DNA of 64,000 bases from a bacterium (lineage in GTDB: Bacteria; Hinthialibacterota; Hinthialibacteria; Hinthialibacterales; Hinthialibacteraceae). Within the stretch, counting starts at the first letter, position 1; every line of letters begins with the position of its first letter. The stretch is from contig CAXXSM010000092.1 in the NCBI GenBank assembly GCA_963663405.2, forward strand, positions 64,001-128,000. The letters are read 5' to 3'. Both the position numbers and the translations under genes were made by a program. Below, in pieces: positions 6,990 through 64,000 of the stretch. The notes under the pieces are model-generated. The model saw nothing but the letters and a program-made list of their open reading frames with translations. It did no database searches and had not been told where the DNA came from.

Positions 6990-8393
6990 GTGACACACAA
7001 CAAGATACTTCTGAGACTAAGCGCAGTGTTTCTAATTATGGGAACCGTAGTGGGAATCGGTTATGCCGATGAAACCTATTTTTTCTGGTATGGAAGCAAC
7101 CCTGGTTCTATCTCCTGGGCGCCTTTCGATTGGGAGGGACAAGGCCGCGCCAGCGGATTCGCGGACAGTGTTCAACTGGGGGAATTCTATAACCACACCC
7201 CTGATGCGGAAGACAATGATGAATTAAATATGTCTCTCACATTCGGCTTAGACATTGTAGGAAATCAAGGAGCCCATCATCCGACTGTGCTGCCCGGCGG
7301 GGTGGGAACAGTCAGCCTTTGGATATATTACGATTACGATTTCGGATGGGGATTCGATGATTCCATGAACACGATATACCTCTCGGTTCTCGCCGGTCCA
7401 GAACTCGTGAATGACAACTATCTCGGTGTCCAAATGACCTACGGCGCTGATAATTTCACAATTGTGTCAAGTGAAAACGCGGCGGGAGTGGATGGTCCCG
7501 CAGTCAACGTCAATGACTGGAATGAATTCGTTTTCACCGACGATGGAAACGCCACGCAGTTACAAATCAATGGTGAAGACGCTGGACTCAGCCTCCCCAG
7601 CGGTGGGAATCTCTGGTATATCAACATTGTCGATGGCGCGATTCAGAGCGATGGCTCCATCGATAACGGCGTGTGTACAGAGACATGGTATATAGATGAT
7701 ATCGTATGTACCTCCTCTACTGAATCGGGCATCAAATATATTGACGTTCCCCTTACTTCGAACACAGTGACGATCGACGGCGTGATCAATCCCGATGAAA
7801 TCGCCGGCGCGAACGCGGTCTCCTGGAACGGCTCCTCTCCTGAACGGCCTGGCGTACACGCGCAGTTTTACGGTCAGTGGAGTTTAACCACGCCGGAAGA
7901 TCTTACCGCCACCGTCTACCTGCAAAATGATGGAACTAATCTTTATATCAGCATCGACGTGGTGGATGACGTAGTCGCCATGCTCCAAGAGGGTTCCTGG
8001 TGGAATAACGACAGCACAGAACTCTATATCGATCATGACAACAGCCGGAGCACGGACGGCGCGGACCAGGTCTCCATCCAAGCGGACATGGCCTACGGAA
8101 ACGGGGACAGCTTTTCGGATTGGTTATTTATCGATTCCGTAGTTAAATCCGATAATTCCGGTTGGCAGGTCGAAGCGGAAGTGGATATGGCCGCGCGGGG
8201 CCTCTCGCAGGGTGAAAGTTATGGATTCGACATCTCGATCAACGATTCCGACGGCGAAAACGAAACCGGCTACCAAGGCGCCCAGGAATGGCTCTACGCC
8301 AGTTACGAAACCGCGTACTATAATGAAACCTACTGGGGCAACATCCGAATCCTCAGCACCAGCAGCCCCATTAATCACTGGGAAGTCTATTAA
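6990..8393 (+). CDS. Secreted protein with C-terminal CBM9-like sugar-binding domain and C-terminal tail motif
   Basis: GTG start 6990 after GAAAGGA; signal peptide ending GYA-D; TIDG, DSTELYID, GFDISINDSD; ends SPINHWEVY. Confidence 0.75.
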   Translation: MTHNKILLRLSAVFLIMGTVVGIGYADETYFFWYGSNPGSISWAPFDWEGQGRASGFADSVQLGEFYNHTPDAEDNDELNMSLTFGLDIVGNQGAHHPTVLPGGVGTVSLWIYYDYDFGWGFDDSMNTIYLSVLAGPELVNDNYLGVQMTYGADNFTIVSSENAAGVDGPAVNVNDWNEFVFTDDGNATQLQINGEDAGLSLPSGGNLWYINIVDGAIQSDGSIDNGVCTETWYIDDIVCTSSTESGIKYIDVPLTSNTVTIDGVINPDEIAGANAVSWNGSSPERPGVHAQFYGQWSLTTPEDLTATVYLQNDGTNLYISIDVVDDVVAMLQEGSWWNNDSTELYIDHDNSRSTDGADQVSIQADMAYGNGDSFSDWLFIDSVVKSDNSGWQVEAEVDMAARGLSQGESYGFDISINDSDGENETGYQGAQEWLYASYETAYYNETYWGNIRILSTSSPINHWEVY

Positions 8394-8725
8394 AAGGATC
8401 AAAACACCTACCCGCGATAGGTAATGGAACACGAGTGTCTCGCTCGTGAATCGTAGAACATCAATTTAATCTTACACAGCCCCCCAAACCAACAACACCA
8501 ATCCTTATCCCTGATATCACACTAACCTTTATAGTAAGCAGAATGTCTTACTGCAATTCCTATCCAAGATTCAATATATAAAAAAAGAAAGGCATTTCTC
8601 ACCCTCTCCAATATTAAATTCAGCCTCAGCCACTACAAAAAATCTCCATAAGTCATACTATGTATAAAACAAATCATTATAAGGATACCAAGCGCCATTA
8701 CGCTGGATCATTCATAAGGAAACTC

Positions 8726-9868
8726 ATGTCTCCAAAGTCTCTCCGTTCCATCACAAATGAGATCGACGATTATGCGATTCTCACCGCGATTGGTGAAGGA
8801 TCGAGAGACGTAATCACCAGCATCGACGCAAAAGGACGTATCCTATCCTGGACATCCGCCGCCGAACGGCTTCTCGGCTATACAGACAATGAAATCATCG
8901 GTCAATCGATCGATATCCTCGTCCCAGAAAATCTACGGGAATACGAACATGAACAGGTTCGAAAACAGATCAACGGTGAGATCGGCGTCTTTCACGAAGA
9001 CACTATCCGGCTTTGCAAATCGGGTGAACCGGTGGAAATCAGTCTTACACGGATTCCCTTGAAAAACCGGCAGGGAAAAAATATCGCTTTGCTCGCCATT
9101 TTAAAAGATGTGTCGGAACAGAAAAAACTACAACAAGAGGTGGATACCCTCCAGCGCAACACGGCGATGGCGAAAGTCGCCGCGAAAGTCGCCCATGAAA
9201 TCCGAACCCCTCTTGGCGTTCTATTCTTAAAATCCGACCTCCTTGTCGAACGGCTGCGAAGGGCGTTTGAAGAATGGGGAACGGGTGATTCGGAAAAACA
9301 TCAAAAAATACTTGAAAAAGGCGTTTCAGATATTCAAAAGCAGATCAACCGATTAGAAGAAATCGCCACGAATTACCTTCATCTTTCAAAAACCGGTACC
9401 ATTGAACGTGTCAATTTAAAACTCCGGCTTTTCATGCGGGACGTCGTATCGGAACTCAAGGAACAATACGATGACCGGATACAATTGGAATATGAAGTGC
9501 AGGATAACCTCCCCGCAGCATGCTTGGACGCTCAGCAATTCCAGCGAGTTTTCTCCAATTTGACACGCAATTCCGTGGAGGCCATCCGATTGGCCCATAT
9601 CCCTAATGGGAAAATTCTCTTCCGCGTCTATCAAGAAGGAGAAACCATTCGATTTGAAGTCAAAGACAACGGACCGGGTATTCCTAAAGAAATCCAACAA
9701 GCCGTTTTCGATCCATTCACTACTTCAAAAAGCATCGGAACCGGTTTGGGATTATATCTAGTCCGGGAGATTGTAGAAAACCATGATGGCTCTATCCATA
9801 TTCAATCTGAAGAAGGGAAAGGAACCACGATCCATATTACCATTCCATTGGAGAGGGACGGCGGCTGA
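8726..9868 (+). CDS. Cytoplasmic PAS-domain sensor histidine kinase
   Basis: PAS, AHEIRTPL H-box, DNGPGI, GTGLGL; no TM segment; RBS supports start 8726. Confidence 0.92.
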   Translation: MSPKSLRSITNEIDDYAILTAIGEGSRDVITSIDAKGRILSWTSAAERLLGYTDNEIIGQSIDILVPENLREYEHEQVRKQINGEIGVFHEDTIRLCKSGEPVEISLTRIPLKNRQGKNIALLAILKDVSEQKKLQQEVDTLQRNTAMAKVAAKVAHEIRTPLGVLFLKSDLLVERLRRAFEEWGTGDSEKHQKILEKGVSDIQKQINRLEEIATNYLHLSKTGTIERVNLKLRLFMRDVVSELKEQYDDRIQLEYEVQDNLPAACLDAQQFQRVFSNLTRNSVEAIRLAHIPNGKILFRVYQEGETIRFEVKDNGPGIPKEIQQAVFDPFTTSKSIGTGLGLYLVREIVENHDGSIHIQSEEGKGTTIHITIPLERDGG

Positions 9869-13277: not shown

Positions 13278-14090
13278 TCACTCAAAAATCATGTAATCAG
13301 AAATAGATGTATCAATGATCCGTTCTGTTTCGTAGATTAATGCGATCTCTTCCTCTGTTAATTCTCGGTTGTAGACTCGCACTTCGTCTATCAAACCGGT
13401 ATAAAACCGTTGTTCTTCTCCTTGTATGTTCATTGCGATTTGAAACGGTTGATCGGATAAATCCGGACTGGCGGCTGTGTCCAACGCAACGCTTTCGGCG
13501 CTATCATTTGAAGTCGCTACGTTATCATACTGCCCGTCCACATAATGTTTTACTTCCAGCACAAAGACGCCATCCTCTGGAAATGTGGATGCGACATGAT
13601 GCCACTCATTATCAGCGATAAAAGTTCCCGCGACATTAAATGTACCTTGAATTTCTGTACGAATCGCGCCAACTACACCATTGCTTTCGCTGGTATTAAT
13701 CCGAAAATGGTATTTTTGGCCATTGCCTGTCGACAATCCCCATCCGAGAATTCCATGAGTGTCGATTACATCGGATTTAATCCAACACATGATGGAACGG
13801 CCTGCGTAGCCTTCTATTCCCCACCATTCCGGGGTATGGAGCGCGTCATCGCCATCAAATTCCAAGGCGGTTCCTTGAACGCCGTCTACCCATTGCGGAT
13901 CCCCCGCCAAAACTTCGGCATGAAAACCACTGCCGGATGAATCGTTCGCAACGGTCCCACTGCCCTCATCAAATGTCCAATGCCCAATCAGATCGCTGGT
14001 GATATCCTGCGCTTGCGTACCAACGGCGCAGACCAAAGTAATTAGTCCTACGCAAATCCAAACGTTAAAACTTTGATCAGATCGTTTCAT
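13278..14090 (-). CDS. Secreted LamG/concanavalin-like domain protein with C-terminal tail motif
   Basis: Signal peptide (TQA-Q), LIGHWTFDEGSG, ALEFDG, WHHVA, GLIDEVRVYNREL; ends TSISDYMIFE. Confidence 0.85.
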   Translation of the reverse strand: MKRSDQSFNVWICVGLITLVCAVGTQAQDITSDLIGHWTFDEGSGTVANDSSGSGFHAEVLAGDPQWVDGVQGTALEFDGDDALHTPEWWGIEGYAGRSIMCWIKSDVIDTHGILGWGLSTGNGQKYHFRINTSESNGVVGAIRTEIQGTFNVAGTFIADNEWHHVASTFPEDGVFVLEVKHYVDGQYDNVATSNDSAESVALDTAASPDLSDQPFQIAMNIQGEEQRFYTGLIDEVRVYNRELTEEEIALIYETERIIDTSISDYMIFE

Positions 14091-18985: not shown

Positions 18986-19693
18986 ATGATGAAAAGAACG
19001 AAAGCATTTACACTGATCGAACTCCTGATTGTCGTCGCAATTATCGGCATTCTAGCCGCCATCGCCGTGCCGAATTTTCTGAACGCGCAAACCCGCGCGA
19101 AATTGGCGCGGTGTAAATCAGACCTGCGGTCGATCGCGATGGCGGCGGAACAGTATTTCCTGGATGTGAATGATTATCCACCCAGCCACATGATCTGGAT
19201 GCTCAGCACGCCCGTACCCTATATCGCCAACATTCCCAAAGATGTTTTTCCACCACCCTATGAAAACAATAGTCAACAGCCCCAAACGTACGCTCAATGG
19301 ACCTGGTACCGTTACATGTCTCTCCCAAAGGGGACAACGGATATGGTACAGCGGTCTGCGGTGATTATTGGGCTTATTTCGAACCGTACGCGTTACGTAG
19401 CGAAGCGATGAATCTTTCGTCCCAAAAAGGATGTGGGTCCGTACGATGGTATACAAAATCATTTGGGGACTAACGCAGGAATGACGGGATTATGCGGGAC
19501 GAACGGGGATGACTGCACGCTCCGTTTTGATCCTACAAACGGCCTGGTGAGTATTGGGGATGTCGCAATCTTTGGACCGGGGGACGATTGGAGTAATGAT
19601 TCAGATTCTTGCAGGTATTTTTTAGATGAATACTATACTATTGAAGGATTGAAATGGAGACAGGTTTTTAGGGTTGGAAAGCCCCTGCTTTAG
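18986..19693 (+). pseudogene. Prepilin-type N-terminal methylation domain protein, frameshifted in G runs
   Basis: AFTLIELLIVVAIIGILAAIAVPNF; the conserved FDPTNGLVSIGD end lies in another frame; shifts near 19330 and 19465; true 3' end uncertain. Confidence 0.75.
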
Positions 19694-24217: not shown

Positions 24218-24841
24218 ATGCAGAACAATCATAAGGGGTTTACTTTGATCGAATTGCTTATTGTCGTCGCGATTATCGGGATTCTCGCCGCGATCGCCGT
24301 GCCAAATTTCCTGAACGCTCAAACACGGGCGAAAATTGCGCGGGCGGAATCGGATATGCGGAACCTGAAAGTCGCGATCGACTCGTACCAGATCGATAAC
24401 AATCAGTATCCAACCGCGCGCTACAATCCTGTGACCGGTGAGAGCGGCCAGATTGCGCTTAGACACCGTTTGTACATGCTAACGACACCGGTATCCTACA
24501 TGAGCAGCATTCCGAGTGATCCCTTCTGGAGCCAACTGAGTGAATATGATCCCGAATTCTTTGACACGTATGATTACTTTGATAATTGGTCCGGCGTGAA
24601 TTACGACAACAGCGAAGCGGGATCGGGCACACGGGGTCACAGTTATCGCCTGGCCAGCGCCGGTCCGGATAACATCATGTGTTGGGGAAGCCCGGCGGCG
24701 TCCAACGCGGGTCATACGGGAATCGATTTCCATACGAGCAATGGATTAACTTCGGATGGAGATATCGTCACTGTGGGCGGGACCATTGTGAATTCGCGGT
24801 GGGTGGTGGAATATCCACTGACGGCGTATCCACGGTTTTAG
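24218..24841 (+). CDS. Prepilin-type N-terminal cleavage/methylation domain protein
   Basis: KGFTLIELLIVVAIIGILAAIAVPNF, SAGPD, FHTSNGLTSDGDI. Confidence 0.9.
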   Translation: MQNNHKGFTLIELLIVVAIIGILAAIAVPNFLNAQTRAKIARAESDMRNLKVAIDSYQIDNNQYPTARYNPVTGESGQIALRHRLYMLTTPVSYMSSIPSDPFWSQLSEYDPEFFDTYDYFDNWSGVNYDNSEAGSGTRGHSYRLASAGPDNIMCWGSPAASNAGHTGIDFHTSNGLTSDGDIVTVGGTIVNSRWVVEYPLTAYPRF

Positions 24842-26350: not shown

Positions 26351-28342
26351 TTACTTATAGAATTCATACGTTTTCATAGAGGAAGTCTGTAGTAAATCCG
26401 AAAGACGCCATAGCCGGATTGTGTCATCCGCGCCTGAGGTAAGGATGGTTTTCCCATCCGGTGAGAACTCGGCGGATTCAATCTCATATTGATGATTTCC
26501 TTCAAAGGAGAATATTTGCTCCCCACTGAATGTGTCCCATAGATAAATTATTTTTTTTGGACTGGCGGTGAGCAGGTAACGATTATTGGGAGATAAAGAG
26601 ATGAGATAATAAGAATTGATATAATCAACCAGTTTGTCCCCCGTTTCCACATCCCACAACGACGCCTCATGATCGCTGGTACTCATCACCAAGTATTTTC
26701 CATCTTTTGAAAATTCCGCGGCCAAGATCTCACTATTGCTACCAGAGAATATATGGATTACATCCCCTGTTTCCGCGTCCCATAAAATCGCGTTCATTCG
26801 TGATTCATCTAATGTAAGAACCTTCGTTTCATCTGGAGAGAAGGTGGCCACACGGGAGACAGAATCGAGTTTACTGCGCAATGGACTGACCTTCGATCGT
26901 CCTGTATCCGTAGAGGAAGCGTTTGTTAAAGAATTCCCGCCGCCGCCCTCCGCTGGAGGGAGGAAGGAATGGATCTTTTCCCCTGTCGCGACATCCCAGA
27001 TGACTCCCAGTTCATTCACCTCCGTTCCGGCGCCCGTGAGTAATTTGGTCCCGTCACGCGTCACACAGGCGGAATAATCCATCCTATTCGGTAAGACATC
27101 CAGTGATAATAATAAATCACTGGTTTCCACATCCCAGAGACGGATTGTCATGGGATACCCGTTGGTGATTAAATACCGGCCATTGGCAGATAACGTAGTA
27201 AAATAAACCCACCCGTAAAATGGAGTGAAGGTTTTGACAACGGCGCCATTGTCTGTGTCGATTAAGTAAGCGCCTAAGTCGCTCCCTACGCAGATGTTTT
27301 TTCCATCCGGAGAAAAATGGGCGTTATAGAGATAATTAATCGAATTTCCATACGACAAAACCGGTTTTCCGGTTTCCAAATCCCACAGTTGTAAAAAGCC
27401 AAAATAACCAGCGATCATATGCCGGCCATCGCTCAGAATATACGTGTTCCCCCCCGGTTTTGGATTGTATTTTGTCTCTGTGGTTTCTCCTGTTTCTGGA
27501 TCGATATATTCAATGATTCCCGGCTCACAGGCCTCCTTCATACACCAGGAATTGAAGATAATTTGGGAGCCATCGGCGCTGAATCGATACGATCCGGATT
27601 TTTCCCAAAGGTGAACCAGGTTTCCGGTTAAAGTTTCCCACAAACGGCCGTATCCAATGCCTGTAACGGTCAGTAGATAATCTCCATCGGGTGAAAATTC
27701 GACTTCATCTACATTCATGTCATGAAGGTAAGTAACAAGTTTTTCCCCATTCTCAATGTTCCATAAATCCGCCGTCATCGCTTTGGCGCCAATCGCGACG
27801 TACTTCATATCCGGTGAAAAGATAGCGTCAGTGGTCGTTCCTTTATAATCTCCAAAAGAACGCACGAACGCGCCGGTTTCCAAGTTCCACTGTTCCGCTG
27901 TGAAGAGTTCGGTGGAGGAAACGTATCTGCATATCAGCGTGTATTTGCCATCGGGGGATATACTTAATCCGTCGGAAGAGTTCAAACTGCAATCAAAGGA
28001 TACAATTTCTCGTCCTGATTCAATGTCCCAAAGAACACTGTAATTCCCTGAGACAAGTAACTTCGATCCACCCGGTGAAAACGTCACACCCATAATCGTT
28101 TGATCTTCTTTGTAAAAATGGTGGATTTGTTCTCCGGTAAATGTATCCCACAAGAACACACCATAATCTCCACTTGTGGCGACCATACGCTCATCCAATG
28201 AGACGGCCGTCGAGTACCTGCCTCCATACGTCAGGATTGTTTCCCCCGAAGGCCCGGTTAACGTTTGTGACTGAGCGGATGGCAGCGCGCAGAGATGAAT
28301 GAGTAACGCAATGGTAAGGATGTAAGACTTGTGTGAGAACAT
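26351..28342 (-). CDS. Secreted WD40-repeat protein W1 with C-terminal tail motif
   Basis: Signal peptide, repeated FSPDG...LWD motifs; ends SSMKTYEFYK. Confidence 0.92.
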   Translation of the reverse strand: MFSHKSYILTIALLIHLCALPSAQSQTLTGPSGETILTYGGRYSTAVSLDERMVATSGDYGVFLWDTFTGEQIHHFYKEDQTIMGVTFSPGGSKLLVSGNYSVLWDIESGREIVSFDCSLNSSDGLSISPDGKYTLICRYVSSTELFTAEQWNLETGAFVRSFGDYKGTTTDAIFSPDMKYVAIGAKAMTADLWNIENGEKLVTYLHDMNVDEVEFSPDGDYLLTVTGIGYGRLWETLTGNLVHLWEKSGSYRFSADGSQIIFNSWCMKEACEPGIIEYIDPETGETTETKYNPKPGGNTYILSDGRHMIAGYFGFLQLWDLETGKPVLSYGNSINYLYNAHFSPDGKNICVGSDLGAYLIDTDNGAVVKTFTPFYGWVYFTTLSANGRYLITNGYPMTIRLWDVETSDLLLSLDVLPNRMDYSACVTRDGTKLLTGAGTEVNELGVIWDVATGEKIHSFLPPAEGGGGNSLTNASSTDTGRSKVSPLRSKLDSVSRVATFSPDETKVLTLDESRMNAILWDAETGDVIHIFSGSNSEILAAEFSKDGKYLVMSTSDHEASLWDVETGDKLVDYINSYYLISLSPNNRYLLTASPKKIIYLWDTFSGEQIFSFEGNHQYEIESAEFSPDGKTILTSGADDTIRLWRLSDLLQTSSMKTYEFYK

Positions 28343-28410: not shown

Positions 28411-30450
28411 CTATGGATACAATTCAAACCCATCCGCGAATGATGTCTGAATCAAATCCGCAAAGCGCCATATCCGGATGGTGCCGTCCGAAGAGGCGGT
28501 AAGAATAGTGTCACCATCGGGTGAGAATTCGGCGGCGACAATCTGTTCACCATGGTTCCCATTAAAAGAGAAGAGTTTCTCCCCGCTGAATGTATCTAAA
28601 AGAGCGATTGGATTATTTCCACGGCCGTAATAATCCTTGGTGGCGGCGAGCAGGAAGCGGTTGTCTGGGGATAGTGAAACGTGATTGACGGTTGAGTATT
28701 TATATTGATCACGAATTAAAGCGACTGGGATCTGATTGAGATTATCCCCCGTTTCCACATCCCATATCTGAACGATGTGATCGTTGCCTCCTGTCACTAC
28801 ATATTGCCCATCCTTTGAAAATTCCGCGCACAAGATCTCTTGGCTGTGTCCAGTGAAAGTATGGATCACCTCTCCCGTCTCCACGTCCCACAAGATTGCG
28901 CTCATTCGAGACTTGTCTAAGGTAAGCGCTTTTGATTCATCCGGTGAGAACGTGGCGACGCGGGAAAGAGTGGGAGTATAGCTGCTAAGCGGCCGCGTTT
29001 TCGACAAAGATGAATCTGTGATGGAAACATTCATTGGAGAGTTCCCGCCTCCACCCTCTGCTGGAGCGAGAAAAGAATGAATCTTTTCCCCCGCCGCGAC
29101 ATCCCAGATGACGCCTAACTCATTTTCATCCGTCCCCGCGCCCGTAAGAAGTTTTGTTCCATCATGCGTTACACATGCAGAAATATCCTGCCTGGTCTGT
29201 ATAACATCTTGTGATAACAATAAATCACTGGTTTCCACATCCCAGAGACGGATGGTCGTGGGATTCCCATTGGTGATTAAAAACCGGCCATCAGCAGATA
29301 AAGAGGTGTAATACGCCGACTCGTTCAACGGGCTGAAAGTACGGACAACAGCGCCATTCTCCGTATCGATTAAATAGGCGCTGAAATCACTTCCCACACT
29401 GATGGTTTTTCCATCCGGTGAAAATTCAGCGTTATATATAGAATTGATCGAATTCCCATACGTTAAAACCGGTTCATTGGTTTCCAAGTTCCACAGTTGC
29501 AAGAATCCCCAATAGCCGCTTATCATATGCCGTCCATCGTTAAAAAAATGAGTGTTAATTCCCATTCCAGGAATGGTTTTCGATTCTATCGTTTCTCCGG
29601 TTTCTGGATCGATGGATTCGAAATACGCCGGTTCGCCTGTATCCACATTCCGCCTGGCGCTCAATTCGATCCGGCGCCCATCAGTACTATACCGATACGA
29701 ACCGGGCTTACTCCAGAGATGGATTAAGTCACCAGTAAAAGTATCCCATAGACGGCCATATCCATTTCCAGTAACCGTGAGCAGATGATTTCCATCTGGA
29801 GAAAATTCCACATAATCTACACTCATATCATGAATGTATGTAATGAGCTTTTCTCCATCTTCAACACTCCAGAGATCCGCCTTTGATATTTCTGTGCCAA
29901 TGGCGATGTATTTCATATCCGGCGAGAAAACCGCGTTAGTGGTCGTTCCTATATAATCTCCAAAGGAACGCACGAACGCGCCGGTTTCCAAGTTCCACTG
30001 TTCCGCTGTGAAGAGTTCGGTGGAGGAAACGTATCTGCATATCAGCGTATATTTGCCATCGGGGGATATACTTAATCCATCGGAAGAGTTCAAACTGCAA
30101 TCAAAGGATAAGAGTTCCTGTCCTGATTCGATGTCCCAAAGAACACTGTAATTCCCTGAGACAAGCAGCTTTGATCCATCCGGTGAAAACGCCACACCCA
30201 TAATCGTTTGGTCCTCTTTGTAAAAATGACGGATTTGTTCTCCGGTGAACGTATCCCACAAGAACACGCCATAATCTCCACTTGTCGCGGCCATACTCTC
30301 ATCCAATGAGACGGCCGCTGAATACCTGCCTCCATACGTTAGGATCGTTTCACCCGAAGGCCCGGTTAATGTTTGGGATTGAACGGATATCAACGAGCAA
30401 AGATAAATGAGTAACGCAATGGTAAGGATGTAAGACTTGTGTGAGAACAT
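28411..30450 (-). CDS. Secreted WD40-repeat protein W2 with C-terminal tail motif
   Basis: Paralog of W1; ends SFADGFELYP. Confidence 0.92.
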   Translation of the reverse strand: MFSHKSYILTIALLIYLCSLISVQSQTLTGPSGETILTYGGRYSAAVSLDESMAATSGDYGVFLWDTFTGEQIRHFYKEDQTIMGVAFSPDGSKLLVSGNYSVLWDIESGQELLSFDCSLNSSDGLSISPDGKYTLICRYVSSTELFTAEQWNLETGAFVRSFGDYIGTTTNAVFSPDMKYIAIGTEISKADLWSVEDGEKLITYIHDMSVDYVEFSPDGNHLLTVTGNGYGRLWDTFTGDLIHLWSKPGSYRYSTDGRRIELSARRNVDTGEPAYFESIDPETGETIESKTIPGMGINTHFFNDGRHMISGYWGFLQLWNLETNEPVLTYGNSINSIYNAEFSPDGKTISVGSDFSAYLIDTENGAVVRTFSPLNESAYYTSLSADGRFLITNGNPTTIRLWDVETSDLLLSQDVIQTRQDISACVTHDGTKLLTGAGTDENELGVIWDVAAGEKIHSFLAPAEGGGGNSPMNVSITDSSLSKTRPLSSYTPTLSRVATFSPDESKALTLDKSRMSAILWDVETGEVIHTFTGHSQEILCAEFSKDGQYVVTGGNDHIVQIWDVETGDNLNQIPVALIRDQYKYSTVNHVSLSPDNRFLLAATKDYYGRGNNPIALLDTFSGEKLFSFNGNHGEQIVAAEFSPDGDTILTASSDGTIRIWRFADLIQTSFADGFELYP

Positions 30451-30518
30451 GATTAATCTCCCAACAATATTGGAATAGAGAATGATGTTTCATTCTTACA
30501 TGCCGCTTGCGCTCGTTA

Positions 30519-32546
30519 CTATGGATACAATTCAAATCCATCCGCGAATGATGTCTGAATCAAATCCGCAAGGCGCCATATCCGGATGGTGTTATCCAAA
30601 CCCGCTCCAGCAGTCAGGATTGATGTTCCATCGGGAGAAAAATCGGCGGCGGTGATTTGATAATCATGGTTTCCATTAAAAGAGAACAGTCTCTCTCCAC
30701 TGAATGTGTCCCATAGAATAATCGAGTAACCTCCTCGCAAGATCCCGGTTGAACTGGCGGTGAGTAAATAACGGTTGTCTGGGGATAAAGAGATTTGATT
30801 CATAGAGAAACTGTTATATTGAAGCCGGTAATTATATTGAGCGAGATTTTCCCCTGTTTCGACATTCCACAACCGGGCGATTCCAAACCGATCACCTGTC
30901 ACTGCGTATTGTCCATCTTTGGAAAATTCAGCGCTTAATATTGACTGTGCGTGACCTATGAAAGTATGTAGTACATCCCCCGTCTCCGCATCCCATAAGA
31001 TCGCGTTCATCCGTGACGCATCCAATGTAAGCGCTTTCGATTCATCGGGAGAGAATGTGGCCACACAGGAGAGAGTATCTGGATAAGTGCTTAAAAGGCG
31101 CGCCTTTGATGAAACCTCATCGAAAACGCTCGCTGGATAATTTCCACCGCCCTCATCTGAAGCGGGGAAAGAATGGATCTTTTCCCCCGTCGCGACATCC
31201 CAGATCACTCCCAATTCGTTCTCCTCTGTTCCCGCGCCTGTAAGAAGTTTTGTTCCATCACGCGTTACGCAAGCGGATATGTCTTCCCTTGCGCGCAGGA
31301 CATCCAGTGATAACAGTAAATCACTGGTCTCTACATCCCAGAGACGAATTGTCGTGGGGTAACCATTGGTTATCAAATACCGGCCATCAGCGGATAAAGA
31401 GGTAAAATAGGCCGACTCATAAAACGGCGCGAATGTGCGGACTACAGAACCATTATCCGCATCGATTATGTAGGCGCTGAAATCGCTCCCAACGCTGATG
31501 GTTTTTCCATCCGGAGAAAATTCGGCGTTATATAACGAATTGATCGAATTTCCATACGTCAAAACCAGTTCTTCCGTTTCCAAATCCCATAGTTGCAATA
31601 ATCCATCATAACCGCCGATCATATACCGTTCATCATTAATGAAAAAACAGTTACTTCCATATCCTGGGATGGTTTTTGTCTCTGTTACCTCTCCGGTATC
31701 TGGATCGAGATATTCGATTGACGCCGGTTCGCCCGTATCCACATTCCACCTGGAACTGTATACAATCCGGCTTCCATCAGAATTAAATCGATAGGAGCCC
31801 TTGTTAGGCCATTCATGGATTAAATCGCCGGACAATGTATCCCACAAATACCCCTTACTGCCGGAAATAGTCAGCAGCCGCGTTCCATCCGGAGAGAATT
31901 CTACTGAGCTCACACTCACAGGATGATTGTAAGAAACGAGTTTCTCTCCATCTTCAATCCTCCATAAATCCGTTTCTGAACGTTTCGCGCCAACTACTAC
32001 GTATTTCATATCCGGCGAAAAGGCCGTACCCGCTATGGTCGCATGTTCATAGTCTCCAAAAGTTTGAATGTAATCTCCCGTCTCCAAATCCCACATATCC
32101 ACGAAAAAGCGTGGGCCTTCCGGTTTGTAGGATCCAATCAGAGCGTATTTTCCATCAGGAGAGATGTCTAGCGCATCGGTATAATTCAACAAACTGTCGA
32201 AGGACAGAATCTCCCGCCCCGTTTCCACGTCCCAGAGAATACAGTAATTCCCCGCCGCTAACAATTTCGAACCATCTGGCGTAAACGCCAATCCCATAAT
32301 CGTATGGCCCTCTTTGTAAAGCCGCTGAATGAATTCCCCAGTATATGTATCCCATAGAAACACGCCCTGATTCCCTCCCACCGCAACAATTTGCTCATCC
32401 GGTGAGATGGCCACCGATTCCCTATAGCCATGGGTCAGGATCGTTTCGCCCGAAGGCCCGGTTAACGTTTGGGATTGAACGGATATCAACGAGCAAAGAT
32501 AAATGAGTAACGCAATGGTAAGGACATAAGACTTGTGCAAAAACAT
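30519..32546 (-). CDS. Secreted WD40-repeat protein W3 with C-terminal tail motif
   Basis: Paralog; ATG at 32546 (MFLHKS); ends SFADGFELYP. Confidence 0.92.
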   Translation of the reverse strand: MFLHKSYVLTIALLIYLCSLISVQSQTLTGPSGETILTHGYRESVAISPDEQIVAVGGNQGVFLWDTYTGEFIQRLYKEGHTIMGLAFTPDGSKLLAAGNYCILWDVETGREILSFDSLLNYTDALDISPDGKYALIGSYKPEGPRFFVDMWDLETGDYIQTFGDYEHATIAGTAFSPDMKYVVVGAKRSETDLWRIEDGEKLVSYNHPVSVSSVEFSPDGTRLLTISGSKGYLWDTLSGDLIHEWPNKGSYRFNSDGSRIVYSSRWNVDTGEPASIEYLDPDTGEVTETKTIPGYGSNCFFINDERYMIGGYDGLLQLWDLETEELVLTYGNSINSLYNAEFSPDGKTISVGSDFSAYIIDADNGSVVRTFAPFYESAYFTSLSADGRYLITNGYPTTIRLWDVETSDLLLSLDVLRAREDISACVTRDGTKLLTGAGTEENELGVIWDVATGEKIHSFPASDEGGGNYPASVFDEVSSKARLLSTYPDTLSCVATFSPDESKALTLDASRMNAILWDAETGDVLHTFIGHAQSILSAEFSKDGQYAVTGDRFGIARLWNVETGENLAQYNYRLQYNSFSMNQISLSPDNRYLLTASSTGILRGGYSIILWDTFSGERLFSFNGNHDYQITAADFSPDGTSILTAGAGLDNTIRIWRLADLIQTSFADGFELYP

Positions 32547-32597: not shown

Positions 32598-34758
32598 CTA
32601 ATACAATTCAAATCCTTCCACTGATGTCGTTTCTAACAAATCGGAAAGGCTCCATATTCGGATCGTGTGATCCTCACCCGCAGTTAGGAATGTTTTTCCG
32701 TCTGGCGAGAAATCAATCGCGGTGATGGTCTCTTGATGGTTTCCATCAAAGGCGAACAATTGTTTCCCGCTGAATGTATCCCAGAGAACGATTGGTTTTT
32801 TCTCTTCATTTTTATAATCGGAACACGCGGTAAGCAAATACTGACCATCAGGCGAAAATGATACGATATTCACGGAATGCAGAAAACTGTGGTATTGAAC
32901 AAGAATCTCTCCCGTTTCCACGTCCCACAACAAAGATTTACTCTCACCGGCGCCTGTCACTAGGTACCGGCCATCCGTTGAAAATTCTGCGCAATAGAGA
33001 ATTCCCCTATGGCCCGTTAAAGTATGCAGCACATCCCCTGTCTCCGCGTCCCATAAGACCGCATCAATTAGCGTATTTTTTTTCGTGAGTACTTTAGATT
33101 CATCAGGAGAGAATCTGGCTACTTGAGGAAGATCGTATGGGAATATAGCAGAATGGCCGCATCTTCGATGAAGACGAATCTGTTGGAGGAACACTCGCAA
33201 GCGTATTCCCTCCGGCGCCCGTGGGTGGATTGATGAAGGAACGGATCTTATCTCCTGTCTCCACGTCCCAGATAGAGCCAAGTTCGTTATCATCCTCCGC
33301 GATTCCTGTAAGGATTTTCGTTCCATCACGGGTTACATCGAAGGAGAGATCGTCTCTTCCCAATACTGTCAGAGATTGGATTAAATCAGCGCTTTTCACA
33401 TCCCAGAGGTAGAATCGATTGGGATACACGCTCGTGATAAAATACCGGCCATTCTCTTCCGGATTGGAAAGATCTCCATCTCCAGAAAATGAGACGAAAT
33501 AGGCGTCGCCTTCTAAAGGAGAGAACGTACGAACGACCGAACCGTCTTCCACATTGATCAAGAAAGCGCATGAAGCGGTTCCCACACCGATTGTTTTTCC
33601 ATCTGGAGAGAATTTCGCGGTGTAAATGGATTGAATCGTATTTCCATAATTACAAATCAGTTTATTCGTTTCCAAATCCCATAGCTGCATCAAACCATAG
33701 TTCGTTCCAATGAAGTGCTGTTCACCAAGCCGGAGAGGGTACTCATCTGAGAGATCCCATATTGATCCGTAATTCGACACGATTACGCGCCGTTTGTCTT
33801 TCAAGAGATAGCCGTATTCGCCCGATCCGGGACACTCAATTCGTTCCATGGCTCTTCCCGTCTCCGGATTAATATATTCAATCGCCACTGAATCATTTCC
33901 AATTATGTTCCCCTTGGAAATCGATATAATTTGATTGCCATCGGGTGCAAATTGAGCGGATCCAGACAGTATTACTCTTCTTACATACTCACCAGTTAAG
34001 GTTTCCCAAAGATACCCGCGAAGAATAGTACCATGACTGCTTTGTTCAGCCGCTAATAGATAATTGCCATCGGGTGAAAAGGAAACGGATTTAAAGACGT
34101 AATAACTCTGAGCGTATGTGACGAGTTTCTCTCCCTCTTCAGCGCTCCATAAATCCAGCGCACTTTCCTGTTTCAACCCTACATTCTTGGTCAACTCGAT
34201 CGTGCCAATCGCGATGTATTTAATGTCGGGCGAAAAGACCGCTTGTGAGATGGCTGTGCGATAGGCGCCATAAGCGCGGACAAACGTTCCTGTTTCCAAG
34301 TTCCACATCTCGACGCGGAACGTTTCACAGTCCTCATCACAGGTACCAATGAGCGCGTATTTCCCATCGGGAGAGATACTGAATCCATCCGTCACATTCA
34401 TCAAGCAATCGAAAGACAAGATCTCTCGCCCCGTCGCAACATCCCAGAGGATGCAATAATTTCCAAGCGCCAACAGTTTCGAACCATCCGGTGTGAACGC
34501 CAATCCCAAAACAAGATGATCCTTTTTATAGAGCCGCTGGATCAGTTCACCGGTATCTGTATCCCATAGAAACACTCCAAACTCACCACCCGTCGCAAAA
34601 AGGCGCTCATCGGGCGAGACCGCCACGGAATACACTGGACCAGCGTTCAAAATCGTTTCACCCGAAGGCCCTATAACCGGTTGTGAATAAACGGGAGTTA
34701 ACAAACAGATGGATACAAGTAGCACAATAATTGAGGAGTAAATATCACGTGGATTCAT
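32598..34758 (-). pseudogene. Secreted WD40-repeat protein W4, single frameshift near 33140 (or assembly error)
   Basis: ORFs 33103-34758 and 32598-33329 join as ...SKMRPFCYIP/YDLPQVARFSPDE, colinear with the paralogs; ends TSVEGFELY. Confidence 0.85.
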
Positions 34759-37503: not shown

Positions 37504-38445
37504 TTAATGCGACTGCCACATCCCCACGGGTGTTTCACCCATCGTCCAGCGGATAATTCGGGCGGTCAATTCTTCTCCATCAGCCGTGAGATGCTCGATC
37601 ACGTTCAACCAATCCGGAGGCAGTTCGGCGCCGTTCATCGGACGCACTTGACCCGTCCAGAATATTGTCGACATCCGCGCCGTCGCGACGCCATCGGCGA
37701 GAGCTCCACCGGCTTCGACGACCGCAATAGCCGCCTTAGTTGGATTGTCTTTCCAAGTGGCTAGAACAACGGTTCCTTCCGCCGCTAAATCGACGGAATC
37801 ATAAATTCCTGTCCAAGCATCCCCTGGATTTTCGGGTGGCCCTTCGGGGCCATCTCCGAAGACTACGATTTCATCGGGGAAACCAGCGGTTAATTCGTGA
37901 GTTTTTCCCGCTTCGGTGAGTACAAGTGTATCGATACCACTAATATCTCCACTTTCCTCTCCAATAAAGAAACCACATGATCCAAGTTTGGCTCGCGTGC
38001 CAAAACAGGAGTGTTCACCCTGCACCACAGGAATTCCGTAATCCTTCACCGGCGGGGCGATGGATGACCAGCATGTGCCAGTATTGTAAATAAGATCGTA
38101 TTCATTATCCTGGAAGAAGTTCGGCTGCCACATATAGACACCGGGATTGATATACACATCATAGCCACGGCCCTCTTCATCGCCTTCCATCAGCATATAC
38201 TGAACGACGTAATCCGGCATGAGAATCGGCAGGTAGCCCATCCCATCGAGCATGTGTCTCGTTAATTCATCGTCCATCGAAAAGTGAGGCATGACATCAA
38301 AATCAAGGTTCCCGCCTGACGCTGCGCCATCACTTTCAGGACACCAGGAAATCCGGCCGATAAGAGCGATTTTTTTCGGCTGCGCGTCAGCCATCACCAC
38401 ACAAAACGCTAAAAGAATGACACTTAACAACAAAGTTTTTTTCAT
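37504..38445 (-). CDS. Secreted hypothetical protein with C-terminal tail motif
   Basis: Signal peptide ending ADA-Q, AAGGAG RBS; ends TPVGMWQSH. Confidence 0.8.
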   Translation of the reverse strand: MKKTLLLSVILLAFCVVMADAQPKKIALIGRISWCPESDGAASGGNLDFDVMPHFSMDDELTRHMLDGMGYLPILMPDYVVQYMLMEGDEEGRGYDVYINPGVYMWQPNFFQDNEYDLIYNTGTCWSSIAPPVKDYGIPVVQGEHSCFGTRAKLGSCGFFIGEESGDISGIDTLVLTEAGKTHELTAGFPDEIVVFGDGPEGPPENPGDAWTGIYDSVDLAAEGTVVLATWKDNPTKAAIAVVEAGGALADGVATARMSTIFWTGQVRPMNGAELPPDWLNVIEHLTADGEELTARIIRWTMGETPVGMWQSH

Positions 38446-55101: not shown

Positions 55102-56247
55102 ATGAAATCCTTCATCTTTACAATATTTCTCATTTTTATTTCCACAAACGCATTTCCCCAGAACATTAACACACCAGAGAACTTCCCCGATCCGAACTTT
55201 CGGGCGGCGGTTGAGAAATTTATGGGGGTGGCGCCGGGCGGCGAATTCACGGCGGCGAAAGCCTCTATAAAAGATGGGACATTGGATTGTTCCTGCTATT
55301 ACCTTGAGCAAAAAATTGAAGATATGACTGGGATAGAACATTTTCCCGCGTTAACTGGACTCTACTGCTGGAACAATCAATTAACCAGCCTGGATGTCTC
55401 CCACAACACCGCTTTGGAATTGCTCTACTGCGCGGAGAATCAATTAAGCAGCCTAGATGTCTCCAACAATCTCGCTTTAACTCAATTCTGGTGCGGTGGT
55501 AATCAATTAACCAGCCTGGATGTCTCCCACAACACCGCTTTGAAAAACCTCAATTGCGGGTACAATCAACTAACCAGCCTGGATGTCTCTAACAACCCCG
55601 CTTTGACTAACCTCTACTGCTATGAAAATCAATTAACCAGCCTGGATGTCTCCAACAACATTGCTTTGACTTATCTCAGCTGTGGTTTTAATCAATTAAC
55701 CAGCCTGGATGTCTCCAACAACATTGCTTTGACTTATCTCAGCTGTGGTTGGAATAAATCAACCAGCCTGGATGTCTCCGGAACCACTACTTTGGAACAG
55801 CTCTATTGCGACTGCAATCAATTAACTAGTCTGGACGTCTCCCACAACACCGCTTTGATAGACCTTAATTGCGGGTACAATCAACTAACCAACCTGGACG
55901 TCTCCCACAACACCGCTTTGAAAAACCTCAATTGCGGTGGAAATCAATTAACCAACCTGGACGTCTCCCACAACACCGCTTTGACTATACTCGACTGCTA
56001 TGAAAATCAATTAACCAGCCTTTCAAGTCTTGTAACCAACGAAGGTCTTGGGCCAGGAGACGAAGTGGATATTCGAAACAATTACATTGGTTGTGTTGAT
56101 CCTGACGCCTCTATGAGTGATATCCAAATTCTTGTAGAGCGATTTGGTGAGGCCGTCTTCGACACCTGGGGAAATCTTGAATCCGGTTTCGCCTTCTCAC
56201 CCCAGAAAAGATGTGAAACGGCGGTATTGGCTTGGTCCTTGCATTGA
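55102..56247 (+). CDS. Secreted leucine-rich-repeat protein with C-terminal tail motif
   Basis: Signal peptide, FPDPNFR cap, ten 21-aa LRRs; ends TAVLAWSLH. Confidence 0.92.
   Translation: MKSFIFTIFLIFISTNAFPQNINTPENFPDPNFRAAVEKFMGVAPGGEFTAAKASIKDGTLDCSCYYLEQKIEDMTGIEHFPALTGLYCWNNQLTSLDVSHNTALELLYCAENQLSSLDVSNNLALTQFWCGGNQLTSLDVSHNTALKNLNCGYNQLTSLDVSNNPALTNLYCYENQLTSLDVSNNIALTYLSCGFNQLTSLDVSNNIALTYLSCGWNKSTSLDVSGTTTLEQLYCDCNQLTSLDVSHNTALIDLNCGYNQLTNLDVSHNTALKNLNCGGNQLTNLDVSHNTALTILDCYENQLTSLSSLVTNEGLGPGDEVDIRNNYIGCVDPDASMSDIQILVERFGEAVFDTWGNLESGFAFSPQKRCETAVLAWSLH
55375..56020 (+). repeat. Intragenic 63-bp tandem repeat (10 full units plus partial)
   Basis: AATCAATTAACCAGCCTGGATGTCTCC recurs at 55375, 55438, 55501 ... 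56005. Confidence 0.92.
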
Positions 56248-57065: not shown

Positions 57066-58088
57066 ATGATGGCTATTCAAAATCGTTTAATCCTTTCCGT
57101 TTTGATTCTAGGTCTATTCGTAGAATTTTCTCGAGCTCAAATCTATCCAGAAAAAGAGTATTTTAATTCCGAAGACCAATCGATTGATACCTATTTCATC
57201 TCAGACGATCATTCACTCATCGTTTTAGGATCCGAGATGGTTCGAATTCTCGACGCAGCCACCAGCGATACGATTCAGACAATTGATCTGAAAGGAAAAC
57301 GCGCAAGGAGTCTGTCTCTATCACCGGACAATCAAAAATTACTGATAGGTCTCGATCGAGCGAAAGTCAAATTATGGGATGTCAATAACAATGTAGAAGA
57401 ATACACATTTGAAACATCAACTAAAAACGCTATTTATTTAGGTGGCCCAGCGCCTGTAGTTGCAACGGCCTTCCATCCAGACAATAATATATTTGCAACT
57501 GAAGAGAATTATCCTGCAGAATCATATTTGCAAATTTGGGATATGGTGAACCGAGTAGAATTATTAAGAGTAATGAAACATACCCCTGTGGAGAGATTAA
57601 TTTTTTCAAAAGATGGTAGGTACCTGTTAGAACGCTCTCTCCAAGATTCACGCGTCATATCTACTGAAACAGGAGAAATTCTACTTGATGTGAGTGGCGC
57701 AGGAGGAGTACTGTCAGATGATGGTAATAGTTTGTATATTGTTAATACTGGAAGCAAACCTGGTGAAACAGCCATTTTACGAAAATATGAAATAAGTAGT
57801 GATAAGATAACTTATACATCCGATGAATTTATGTCACTTGGTCCATATATTGAAGTTCTTCCAAATGGAAAATACCTATTAGCGCTGGATGAATCATAGA
57901 CCTCATTAGTAATACTCGATATAGAAAACAACGATATTACGCATACACTTGAAAACAAGAATAATGACGAGATTAAATACCACTCCTTTTGGAACAGCGC
58001 AAATCTGGTTTATGCTTTAAGTGGAAACAAAGTCTATAAATGGAAAATTCCCGGCTTAGATTCAGCTGTAGATTATCCTTTTTTCTAG
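57066..58088 (+). pseudogene. Secreted WD40-like protein interrupted by an in-frame TAG
   Basis: Signal peptide, SLSPDNQK...KLWD; the frame continues 62 codons after TAG 57897-57899 to ...VYKWKIPGLDSAVDYPFF*. Confidence 0.75.
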
Positions 58089-63661: not shown

Positions 63662-63696
63662 AAAAAAAGTCCCAGCAAAAACTGCCGGGACTTTTT
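63662..63696. terminator. Rho-independent terminator (bidirectional shape)
   Basis: AAAAAAAGTCCC...GGGACTTTTT just after the stop at 63720. Confidence 0.75.
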
Positions 63697-63719
63697 CGAT
63701 TGTTCTAAATCACTAATGA

Positions 63720-64000
63720 TCAGTAGTTTTCCCACAGAGACGCTTTCGAATCAGTAAGAGTATTCGCATCGGTGACAACGTGCAGGAAGAAATCCTGTTC
63801 GACCGTGTATTCTTCATTAATAATGGCGAGCAGGCGGACAAAGGCGCCGGCCGCGTTGTCAGGAACTTCCCAGTATAAAGTACCATCTTCCAGAATCGTC
63901 ATTCCCTCCGGACCGTCGAGTAATTCGAAGGTCACGGTTTCTGGATCCGCCAACACGCTGGGTTGATAGGAGAACAACGAATTTTCATGAACCGTCGAAG
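63720..64000 (-). CDS. 3' end of a protein with Ig/cadherin-like domain and C-terminal tail motif
   Basis: FELLDGPEGMTI...GTLYW; ends SKASLWENY; start lies outside the window. Confidence 0.7.
   Translation of the reverse strand, partial: STVHENSLFSYQPSVLADPETVTFELLDGPEGMTILEDGTLYWEVPDNAAGAFVRLLAIINEEYTVEQDFFLHVVTDANTLTDSKASLWENY

Follow-up and report, generated by a model that had tools for sequence, protein, structure and literature searches.

The window, by which we mean the whole 64-kb stretch of DNA analysed here, encodes nine proteins that share a short C-terminal tail; all nine C-termini quoted in an earlier note on this DNA were recovered, each at the stop codon it had named. Two of the tails are on the forward strand. 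SPINHWEVY (8364..8390, PSSM score 20.2) ends a CBM9/LamG-like secreted protein (gene ~6882-8393, stop 8391-8393), and TAVLAWSLH (56218..56244, score 21.7) ends an LRR protein (55102-56247, stop 56245-56247). The other seven are on the reverse strand. TSISDYMIFE (13281..13310, score 10.9) closes a LamG protein (13278-14123, stop 13278-13280); it has the aromatic Y where W is expected, and one residue extra. Four tails come from an array of WD40 genes: SSMKTYEFYK (26354..26383, score 5.2) from the protein at 26351-28342, SFADGFELYP twice (28414..28443 and 30522..30551, both scoring 9.4) from the proteins at 28411-30450 and 30519-32546, and TSVEGFELY (32601..32627, score 19.8) from a fourth copy that is split into two ORFs, an N-terminal piece at 33103-34758 and the tail-bearing C-terminal piece at 32598-33332. 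TPVGMWQSH (37507..37533) belongs to a 313-aa secreted protein (37504-38445) that matched no Pfam family and has a class-I glutamine-amidotransferase-like fold. Finally, SKASLWENY (63723..63749, score 9.6) ends a 936-aa Ig-like protein whose gene, from 63720 to ~66530, extends beyond the window. Pfam bore out the domain labels proposed earlier, with CBM9_1 and Laminin_G_3 in the CBM9/LamG-like protein, WD40 in the protein at 26351 and LRR_4 in the LRR protein.

Eight of the nine tails pass the PSSM threshold of 8.18, set to let through ~0.6 proteins per proteome by chance. The exception (5.2) is the WD40 protein at 26351, a paralogue of the other WD40 proteins in the window. A tenth tail, SAVDYPFF (58062..58085, forward strand, stop 58086-58088), is present at 58088 as claimed, in the same frame as a WD40-like ORF (57066-57899); it lies past an in-frame stop and is therefore better described as the degenerate tail of an interrupted gene. 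The claim that carriers have cleavable-type signal peptides stood, by eye, for the LamG, WD40, 313-aa, LRR and Ig-like proteins (the last with its N-terminus outside the window), while the CBM9-like protein has a signal-peptide-like segment only past a long N-region. Two other secreted proteins (24946-26325 and 39122-40708) do lack the tail. The window also has two prepilin-type genes, both on the forward strand: a GspG-like pseudopilin paralogue (N_methyl + T2SSG, 24218..24841), which lies beside the WD40 carrier array and belongs to a family of 126 genes in this genome, and a second N_methyl gene at 18986..19411.

In the genome as a whole, an iterated PSSM found the consensus [T/S/V]-[S/A/P]-[V/I]-x-[D/N]-W-x-[L/I/V]-[Y/F/H], followed by 0-1 residue, on 218 of 6592 predicted proteins against ~0.6 expected. 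(Genes were predicted with a crude home-made codon-usage caller, and the assembly is 82% complete in 170 contigs.) The regular expression used in the earlier note also held up, matching the true C-terminus of 138/6592 predicted proteins as against 1-4 when it was anchored 5-50 residues upstream. At 15 bits or more the motif occurs at 185/6592 C-termini and at 6 of 2,146,103 internal positions. The hydrophobic positions are -7, -4, -2 and -1, and conservation reaches back to -9. Most tails (167) stop exactly at Y/F/H, while 48 have one residue more and three have two; the extra residue, found on ~22% of tails, is charged or polar, which argues against a reader that requires an exactly placed terminal carboxylate.

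Could the tail have no function in the protein, and arise instead from a DNA repeat, terminator or mobile-element end that overlaps the 3' ends of genes, or from faulty gene calling? This can be dismissed with near certainty. The information content shows codon periodicity, with ~0 bits at third positions and informative first and second positions, and T, V and L codons are mixed at conserved positions of the tail; since third positions are free, selection acts at the protein level. Among carriers nothing is conserved downstream of the stop codon. The tail was found on only 17 of 45,788 ORFs not chosen as genes, several of them visibly carrier fragments, so that per ORF the motif is 90 times commoner in predicted genes. 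Moreover, orthologues at 65-75% identity retain the tail even though the tail sequences differ.

Which proteins carry the tail? After its removal the carriers fall into 90 BLAST clusters, 60 of them singletons. For 40 cluster representatives the Pfam families listed (the 25 commonest of 32) include CBM9, Beta_helix, Laminin_G_3, SGL, FGE-sulfatase, esterase, Peptidase_C1, GH5 cellulase and pectinesterase among others; WD40, LRR and pectate-lyase-like beta-helix proteins and proteases also occur, and ten carriers exceed 1000 aa. When the last 36 residues of 40 carriers were aligned, conservation was confined to the tail. Signal-peptide-like N-termini are present on 179/218 carriers (82%) versus 2438/6374 other proteins (OR 7.4, p 8e-39); as the heuristic used is permissive, with 38% of the other proteins also positive, these rates are unreliable as absolute values. 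The earlier note had named equal frequency on cytoplasmic proteins as the outcome that would speak against its proposal, and the profile scan of the predicted proteome gave the opposite, a strong enrichment on proteins with signal peptides. The 39 carriers without a signal peptide by this heuristic include many short fragments, but also one sulfatase-like and several very long proteins. Lipoproteins, two of which had been said to lack the tail, are depleted among carriers and not absent, a lipobox being found in 5/175 carriers as against 136 of a set of 1663 (OR 0.33, p 0.01).

As had been proposed, the tail includes no transmembrane helix: no TM-like stretch (15 residues with mean Kyte-Doolittle hydropathy >=1.8) was found in the last 40 residues of any of the 218 carriers. 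In an AlphaFold2 model of one of them, the protein at 37504-38445, the last confident element is a helix at residues 288-301; the tail forms a coil whose pLDDT drops to 36, so it is predicted to be a free, unstructured peptide outside the fold.

The tail is characteristic of a phylum, probably Hinthialibacterota/OLB16. A strict DNA pattern is present in 34 of its 35 genomes, with 43 matches in the genome of the window and 2-46 in 33 of the other 34, against 0-1 for a reversed-pattern control; the 35th genome (G028) has the variants W-R-[L/V]-[Y/F] and W-x-L-Y-R. In 42 outgroup genomes the strict pattern gave 0-1 matches, which is chance level, so the lineage-specificity suggested in the note is well founded. 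Across the phylum the common core consists of an aromatic residue, W in nearly all cases, followed by any residue, an aliphatic residue and Y/F/H. One carrier keeps the tail in 9/9 orthologues, and 13/13 close homologues of the LamG protein of the window end in [W/F/Y]-x-[L/I]-[Y/F]; distant LamG homologues are without it. A second, different W-containing tail was seen in other lineages.

The neighbourhood of carrier genes adds a lead that the earlier note did not contain and that narrows the candidate machinery. A GspG-like gene is immediately adjacent to 29/218 carriers versus 43/970 tail-less proteins with signal peptides (OR 3.3, p 6e-6); for cytoplasmic proteins the figure is 88/3466. The top neighbour families of carriers are two overlapping, BLAST-defined groups of pilin-like genes (35/75 and 44/116, versus a base rate of 15.5%). 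Even so, only ~13% of carriers in this genome have an adjoining pilin-like gene. Elsewhere a pilin-like ORF lies within 600 bp of 10/24 carriers in genome G015, 3/14 in G021 and 1/14 in G012, and a pilin-like gene is near 4/7 tail loci in G028. The adjacent pilin is kept at only 3/9 orthologous loci. The pairing of carrier and pilin is thus not a conserved operon, and the clustering could reflect shared accessory-gene islands or co-regulation instead of physical interaction. The expansion of prepilins, on the other hand, is phylum-wide, with 42 to at least 150 PF07963 matches per genome compared with 3-13 in six outgroups. The genome also encodes a GspD/L/K/J-type type II secretion (T2SS) operon and eight secretin loci. 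In P0063, a distant homologue, a prepilin N-terminus is fused directly to a LamG domain.

The earlier note proposed a tag for second-step export, anchoring or docking. The lineage restriction, signal peptide enrichment, terminal position, lack of a TM helix and lack of a matching model all agree with this, and from them we infer the role itself: the tail is probably a sorting or docking signal. Taken whole, our best reading, to which we give a probability of about 0.55, is that of a C-terminal tag for sorting or docking, specific to the phylum and possibly recognised by a type II secretion/type IV filament machine. The carriers (among them hydrolases of polysaccharides and of proteins, polysaccharide-binding modules, repeat proteins and giant proteins that resemble adhesins) would first cross the inner membrane via Sec, using a type-I signal peptide. 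A phylum-specific envelope receptor would then read the tail in the periplasm and direct the folded carrier across or onto the outer membrane. The likeliest machinery would be a type II secretion/type IV filament system, in which a protein of the expanded GspG-like pseudopilin family may offer the docking site for the tail. We put forward a reader related to pseudopilins or to the T2SS as a tentative suggestion, with the odds clearly against it. At least as doubtful is the full version, in which the tail would be the first linear, transferable signal for a type II secretion/type IV filament machine with hundreds of cargo proteins, the free C-terminal W-x-L-Y peptide docking on one of the ~100 GspG-like paralogues or on a filament tip, and folded enzymes and adhesins being either pushed through a secretin or displayed on the fibre as non-covalent 'split modular pilins'. 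If true, such docking would give a function to unexplained pseudopilin expansions.

Other readings of the tail were considered. Carriers might be exported by a generic route and then retained at the surface, the tail holding on non-covalently to an outer-membrane protein or to a polymer of the envelope, by a logic like that of SLH, LysM and WxL. In keeping with this are a cargo in which binding modules, repeat proteins and giant proteins of adhesin type abound, a tail that is a free aromatic-rich peptide and its variation as a unit between lineages, which is expected of a ligand with a co-evolving partner. We nevertheless think it unlikely, given that nine residues are very short to bind a polymer, that no Pfam WxL, SLH or LysM match was found among the carriers scanned, and that the clustering of carrier and pseudopilin genes would be left unexplained. 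Chaperone-usher pili have subunits joined by terminal strands, and the same reportedly holds for an archaeal Tat-dependent pilus (PMC12337348); by analogy the tail might slot into the next subunit or into a matrix protein, and carriers would in this way polymerise or join a fibre through donor-strand exchange. Carrier genes do adjoin one another more than expected (22 pairs vs ~7), but most of these pairs, such as the WD40 array of the window, resemble tandem paralogues. The hydrophobic spacing given above lacks the regular alternation of a strand, and carriers of so many unrelated folds have no common acceptor groove; strand donation is accordingly very improbable.

A proteolytic or quality-control tag is also improbable, though less far-fetched. 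Here a periplasmic PDZ protease (an enzyme like DegP/DegS, or else an S41 C-terminal processing peptidase) would read the apolar aromatic C-terminus so as to mature, activate or degrade the carrier. The PDZ domains of DegS and Prc bind apolar or aromatic C-termini, a preference that suits the end of the tail; the motif sits strictly at the extreme C-terminus, and the genome has seven S41 peptidase genes, of which three, at 1122-1169 codons, are unusually large. PDZ ligands of the DegS/Prc type, however, consist of the last three or four residues with a free carboxylate at a fixed register, which the charged or polar residue on ~22% of tails would shift, and conservation over nine residues goes beyond typical ligands. 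No S41 gene was linked to carriers, and it is hard to see why ~200 unrelated proteins that are stably kept should bear a turnover mark.

The motif allows ~200 probable exoproteins per genome to be predicted from sequence alone in an uncultured, polymer-degrading phylum. LPXTG, PEP-CTERM and the C-terminal domain (CTD) of T9SS cargo each led to a dedicated envelope machine and are routine in predicting surface proteomes, and proteome-wide scans for C-terminal motifs in candidate phyla can still reveal new sorting classes.

How does the tail compare with known signals? Neither NCBIfam nor Pfam covers it, and we found no paper that does. The T9SS CTD of Bacteroidota (TIGR04183) is similarly a C-terminal tag on unrelated cargo with signal peptides (glycoside hydrolases, proteases, adhesins, repeat proteins), confined to one lineage, with tens to hundreds per genome. 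It differs in being a folded beta-sandwich domain of ~70-100 residues, whereas the tail has 9-10 residues and is predicted to be unstructured; the limits of conservation and the coil in the AlphaFold2 model rule it out. No T9SS-type sorting model matched in an NCBIfam scan of nine window proteins (E<=1), and the TIGR04183 profile gave no matches in the genome, the control genomes being silent too. PEP-CTERM/exosortase, LPXTG/sortase, GlyGly-CTERM/rhombosortase and related tripartite signals share with the tail a short lineage-specific motif close to the C-terminus of many secreted proteins, paralogous or not. In them the motif must be followed by a TM helix and then a basic cluster (Arg-rich in PEP-CTERM), where the 218 carriers have no TM-like stretch. 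LPXTG is in addition a different motif. For PEP-CTERM, exosortase (PF09721) had no match in this 82% complete genome while the control, M. jannaschii, was positive; the TIGR02595 profile had none either, with its control silent. A single TM-like stretch at the C-terminus was seen on only 14 signal-peptide proteins of this genome, which have no motif in common.

The outer-membrane protein beta-signal (BamA/BamD) likewise has an extreme C-terminal aromatic residue after hydrophobic positions. Its hydrophobics alternate, it ends in F and it is found on beta-barrels, unlike the soluble folds of tail carriers, and the Omp85 and TonB-dependent receptors of this genome have such a canonical ...x-F end, for which the tail matrix gives scores of -17 to -25. 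The WxL domain of Firmicutes, with Trp-x-Leu near the C-terminus of surface proteins, is well over 100 residues long, has two WxL motifs and attaches non-covalently to the cell surface. It is absent from the Pfam families listed for the carriers scanned (five in the window and 40 cluster representatives, the latter with the 25 commonest of 32 families and including seven pilin-adjacent carriers). A tail without TM helix or folded domain that is yet statistically like known sorting signals implies that a different reading mechanism must exist. Substrate recognition in type II secretion is presented as a long-standing open question (PMC10120004), and a short linear tag with genetic ties to pseudopilin genes would open it to peptide-based tests. 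The same source describes, in TcpF/CofJ, an N-terminal disordered export signal that binds a minor pilin (TcpB) of type IVb pili and drives export, with one cargo per system (PMC10120004). Like that signal, the tail appears to be a short disordered terminal peptide on Sec-exported folded proteins, judging by the signal peptide enrichment and the low pLDDT in one model, and the TcpF/CofJ signal serves a type IV filament machine. The TcpF/CofJ signal differs in being N-terminal, with a single cargo and binding established by experiment; the tail is C-terminal, has ~200 cargo proteins per genome and is connected to pseudopilins through gene clustering. On our reading the tail would parallel the disordered signal by which Vibrio cholerae exports TcpF through contact with a minor pilin, but from the C-terminus and for many cargo proteins.

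An earlier note on this window, made from the sequence alone, listed nine proteins that share a short C-terminal ending and proposed that this tail is a lineage-specific sorting or docking tag. Translation of the ORFs it named places all nine endings at the expected stop codons, and its domain labels agree with Pfam (CBM9_1/Laminin_G_3, Laminin_G_3, WD40 and LRR_4). A tenth candidate (SAVDYPFF) stood in part: the sequence is there, but it lies beyond the in-frame stop of a WD40-like ORF (57066-57899). In this interrupted gene (57066-58088) the stop at 57897-57899 is followed by 62 codons of WD40-like sequence leading to a degenerate tail; pseudogene formation, a sequencing error or read-through could each account for this. 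Window 26351-34758 holds four tandem WD40 beta-propeller genes with signal peptides and near-identical N-termini. The fourth consists of two overlapping ORFs (33103-34758 and 32598-33332), probably because of a frameshift or assembly error.

Is the ending a property of the genome or only of this window? The source assembly (8.44 Mb in 170 contigs, 82% complete) was annotated with a purpose-written ORF caller based on codon usage, which gave 6592 genes and 81% coding sequence. The regular expression of the earlier note matched 138/6592 proteins at the true C-terminus, as against 1-4 when anchored 5-50 residues upstream. Iterating a position-specific matrix until it converged, with the cut-off set where internal-offset controls yield 0.6 passes per proteome, identified 218 tail-bearing proteins (carriers) among the 6592; motifs scoring at least 15 bits occur at 185 of the 6592 termini vs 6 of 2,146,103 internal positions. 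In the 218 carriers, positions -9 to -7 are mostly T (100), S (62) or V (49), then S (57), A (43) or P (39), then V (153), I (32) or A (19). Position -6 is variable, -5 is most often D (66) or N (50), and -4 is W in 198. The last three positions favor E (51), S (41) or M (28); L (134), I (30) or V (27); and Y (119), F (43) or H (42). The motif ends exactly at the last residue in 167 carriers, one residue before it in 48 (the extra residue being mostly K, E, D, R or Q) and two before it in three.

Such a shared ending might be an artefact, either a DNA repeat or an annotation error. DNA information content near the stop codon is, however, periodic with third positions close to zero, T, V and L are encoded by a mixture of codons at conserved tail positions, and the DNA 3' of carrier stops shows no conservation; it is therefore the protein, not a DNA element, that is under selection. 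Further, of the 45,788 ORFs left uncalled as genes (60 codons or longer), only 17 have the tail, and several of these are clear carrier fragments. The codon pattern at stops and this rarity rule out the repeat and the annotation error, and the artefact explanation is refuted.

The carriers are diverse. With tails removed they form 90 single-linkage BLAST clusters, the largest having 47, 26 and 12 members and 60 being singletons; 10 of the 218 exceed 1000 aa. Forty cluster representatives, drawn from the 70 clusters that have a signal peptide-positive member of 150-1100 aa, match 32 Pfam families, including CBM9_1, Beta_helix, Laminin_G_3, SGL, FGE-sulfatase, SnoaL, esterase, Peptidase_C1, GH5 cellulase, FG-GAP, NHL, Peptidase_S9 and pectinesterase. 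Forty random tail-less proteins with signal peptides gave instead GDSL lipases, pseudopilins, TPR, DUF748, GH32, VWA and transglycosylase. The association with export that the earlier note had seen in the window extends to the proteome: by a heuristic made for this analysis, permissive in that any start codon in the ORF was allowed, 179/218 carriers have a signal peptide vs 2438/6374 other proteins (OR 7.4, p 8e-39), and the negative carriers are mostly short fragments. In a stricter signal peptide class, carriers account for 101 of 1371 proteins. Lipoboxes are rarer in carriers (5/175 vs 136/1663, OR 0.33, p 0.01). As first read, the ending has no TM helix (no TM-like stretch in the last 40 residues of any of the 218), and an alignment of 40 carriers over their 36 C-terminal residues shows conservation in the tail alone.

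One window carrier, the product of 37504-38445 (ending TPVGMWQSH), is assigned no family by Pfam. AlphaFold2 models it (pLDDT 84.9) with a structure similar to class-I glutamine-amidotransferase-like folds (TM 0.41-0.53); a helix (288-301) closes the fold, and the tail is modeled as coil with pLDDT down to 36. Among 19 aligned members of this family, 18 end in T-P-T-x-V-x-x-W-x-x-x, the exception being the homolog P0021.

A strict DNA pattern (S/T-x-V/I/M-x-D/N-W-x-hydrophobic-Y/F/H/L-stop), with its reversal as control, was used to follow the tail through 35 genomes of the phylum, which represent one class and six families. The source genome has 43 matches and 33 of the 34 others have 2-46, the reversed control giving 0-1. 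The remaining genome (G028) has a single match, not at a stop, but a looser pattern found 12 ORFs with variant tails (...W-R-[L/V]-[Y/F] and ...W-x-L-Y-R) in the seven loci examined, so that none of the 35 genomes was found to lack a tail altogether. The proposed lineage restriction is borne out by 42 outgroup genomes, in each of which the 0-1 matches are no more than chance would give. They comprise six 'same domain' genomes, four with names (Kiritimatiellia, Lentisphaerae, Omnitrophota and Verrucomicrobiae) and another 32 named ones spread over many phyla, among them an Entotheonella of 9.7 Mb. Source labels among the homologs read 'Candidatus Omnitrophota/Omnitrophica bacterium' and 'Candidatus Hinthialibacter sp.'; PMC9324843 states that OLB16 was once classed in Omnitrophota. 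Taken together, these point tentatively to Hinthialibacterota (OLB16) as the phylum.

Within families the tail persists while its own sequence drifts. In comparisons among relatives, which are not independent samples, one carrier (L116) keeps it in 9/9 orthologs. For the window LamG protein (13278-14123), 43 of 57 matches were retrieved; all 13 close homologs have the tail, with W, F and Y alternating at -4, and none of the 28 distant homologs retrieved has it.

Thirteen of these 28 distant homologs, from other lineages (one labelled Nitrospinaceae), have another short tail of the approximate form [A/V]-x-P-x-G-[K/R]-L-x-x-[T/S]-W-G-x-[I/L]-[K/R] plus 0-3 residues (P0052, P0054, P0055, P0059, P0060, P0068, P0069, P0070, P0072, P0076, P0080, P0081 and P0085). 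A scan of five of these proteins gave no NCBIfam model for it, and as a DNA pattern (...G-K-L-x-x-T-W-G-x-I-K) it is at chance level in 37 genomes. It may be another undescribed C-terminal tag.

Protein families over-represented within three genes of carriers were then considered. The top two groups by far (35/75 and 44/116 members vs a base rate of 15.5%; p 2e-10 and 4e-9) are overlapping BLAST-defined sets of a single pilin-like family. These are GspG-like pseudopilins (N_methyl plus T2SSG), whose N-terminus is invariant and which share a conserved S-N-G-x-x-S-x-G-D-I near the C-terminus. By N-terminal motif the source genome has 126 such genes, and none has the tail; the window holds one of them (24218-24841) and a second prepilin-type (N_methyl) gene (18986-19411). 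A pseudopilin gene directly adjoins 29/218 carriers vs 43/970 tail-less proteins with signal peptides (OR 3.3, p 6e-6), the figure for cytoplasmic proteins being 88/3466; 20 of the 29 adjacent pairs are on the same strand. In 20-kb loci of relatives a pilin-like ORF lies within 600 bp of the carrier in 10/24 cases (G015, which has 13 pilin-like ORFs in 378 kb), 3/14 (G021) and 1/14 (G012), and the association is found in 4/7 loci of G028. A one-to-one pilin-carrier operon as a general rule was rejected, since only 3/9 orthologous loci retain the neighboring pilin. The prepilin expansion itself is phylum-wide: PF07963 matches number between 42 and at least 150 in each genome, and 3-13 in each of six outgroups.

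P0063, a distant LamG homolog of 274 aa from another lineage, has a prepilin N-terminal methylation motif fused straight to LamG (PF07963 plus PF13385); it is a 'modular pilin' made of the two parts that are separate neighbors in the source genome. An ECF-sigma-like family of 189 aa (5/5 members), a 420-aa family with signal peptides (5/5) and a response-regulator family (13/28) are likewise enriched within three genes of carriers (p uncorrected). The window LamG gene sits between two radical-SAM genes (12030-13079 and 14358-15782), one with a B12-binding domain; seven of the 13 paralogs of the B12-binding gene are at most three genes away from a carrier (p 1.6e-3, uncorrected for the roughly 300 families tested). 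Elsewhere in the window, a minus-strand run of small genes (553-5950) resembles an oxidative-stress cluster, with N-termini that by eye are ferritin-, rubredoxin-, flavodiiron-, rubrerythrin-, desulfoferrodoxin- and peroxiredoxin-like.

The source genome has eight secretin loci (contigs C118, C109, C18, C29, C60, C23, C133 and C38) and seven S41 peptidase genes (C79, C132, C22, C36 and C88), of which three occupy open frames 1122-1169 codons long; these numbers of loci and genes are unusually high for a single genome. At least one operon encodes a GspD-type secretin, a PilM/GspL-like protein, GspK, GspJ and a further pseudopilin. The type II secretion operon on C29 includes three small proteins with no Pfam family, and no PDZ/GspC is recognizable in it. 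In one uncontrolled co-folding run, the soluble domain of a pseudopilin (residues 30-196) and the 36 C-terminal residues of the carrier next to it scored 0.00 (mark 0.32), which counts neither for nor against an interaction.

The tail is a peptide confined to the extreme C-terminus, free and unstructured, and under protein-level selection; the proteins that bear it are of the Sec-type exported kind and have many folds. It is found throughout the phylum with lineage variants, is unlike every defined signal, and the carrier genes cluster with pseudopilin genes. We favor, at a probability of about 0.6, a two-step route: export by Sec would come first, after which an envelope receptor would read the tail and send the protein, already folded, onto or through the outer membrane. 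Enzymes and binding modules for polymers that cannot enter the periplasm (GH5, pectate-lyase-like beta-helix, pectinesterase, CBM9) make up much of the cargo, which would fit a destination outside the cell. Rival readings of the tail are that it is a surface-retention motif holding the protein on the cell, a recognition signal for a PDZ protease, or a strand-donation element; no link to the tail was found for any particular one of the seven S41 peptidases or the eight secretin loci in this genome. In a narrower version of the receptor model, the reader may belong to the type II secretion/type IV filament apparatus and perhaps be a pseudopilin; we hold this as a possible reading, though less likely than not.

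How does the tail compare with known signals? No NCBIfam model matches it at E ≤ 1 in the nine window proteins or seven LamG homologs, and no Pfam model covers it in the window carriers or the 40 representatives. Genome searches with TIGR04183 (T9SS-CTD) and TIGR02595 (PEP-CTERM) gave no match, control genomes being equally silent; exosortase (PF09721) is absent from the 82% complete assembly, and only 14 proteins with signal peptides have a lone C-terminal TM-like stretch, without a common motif. Mimicry of the BAM beta-signal is ruled out by the genome's own Omp85 and TonB-dependent receptors, whose canonical ...x-F ends receive -17 to -25 when the tail matrix is applied to them. Searching of openly accessible full text found no description of the tail, and the words 'C-terminal' and 'sorting' occur 0 times in the main text of PMC9324843, a paper on the phylum. 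The architecture of the tail (about nine residues, no TM helix, no fold) is without counterpart among C-terminal sorting tags, the kind to which it probably belongs. The closest mechanistic precedent is TcpF, whose disordered export signal binds the minor pilin TcpB (PMC10120004); that signal is N-terminal, whereas the tail is C-terminal. If the pseudopilin link holds, the tail would be categorically new.
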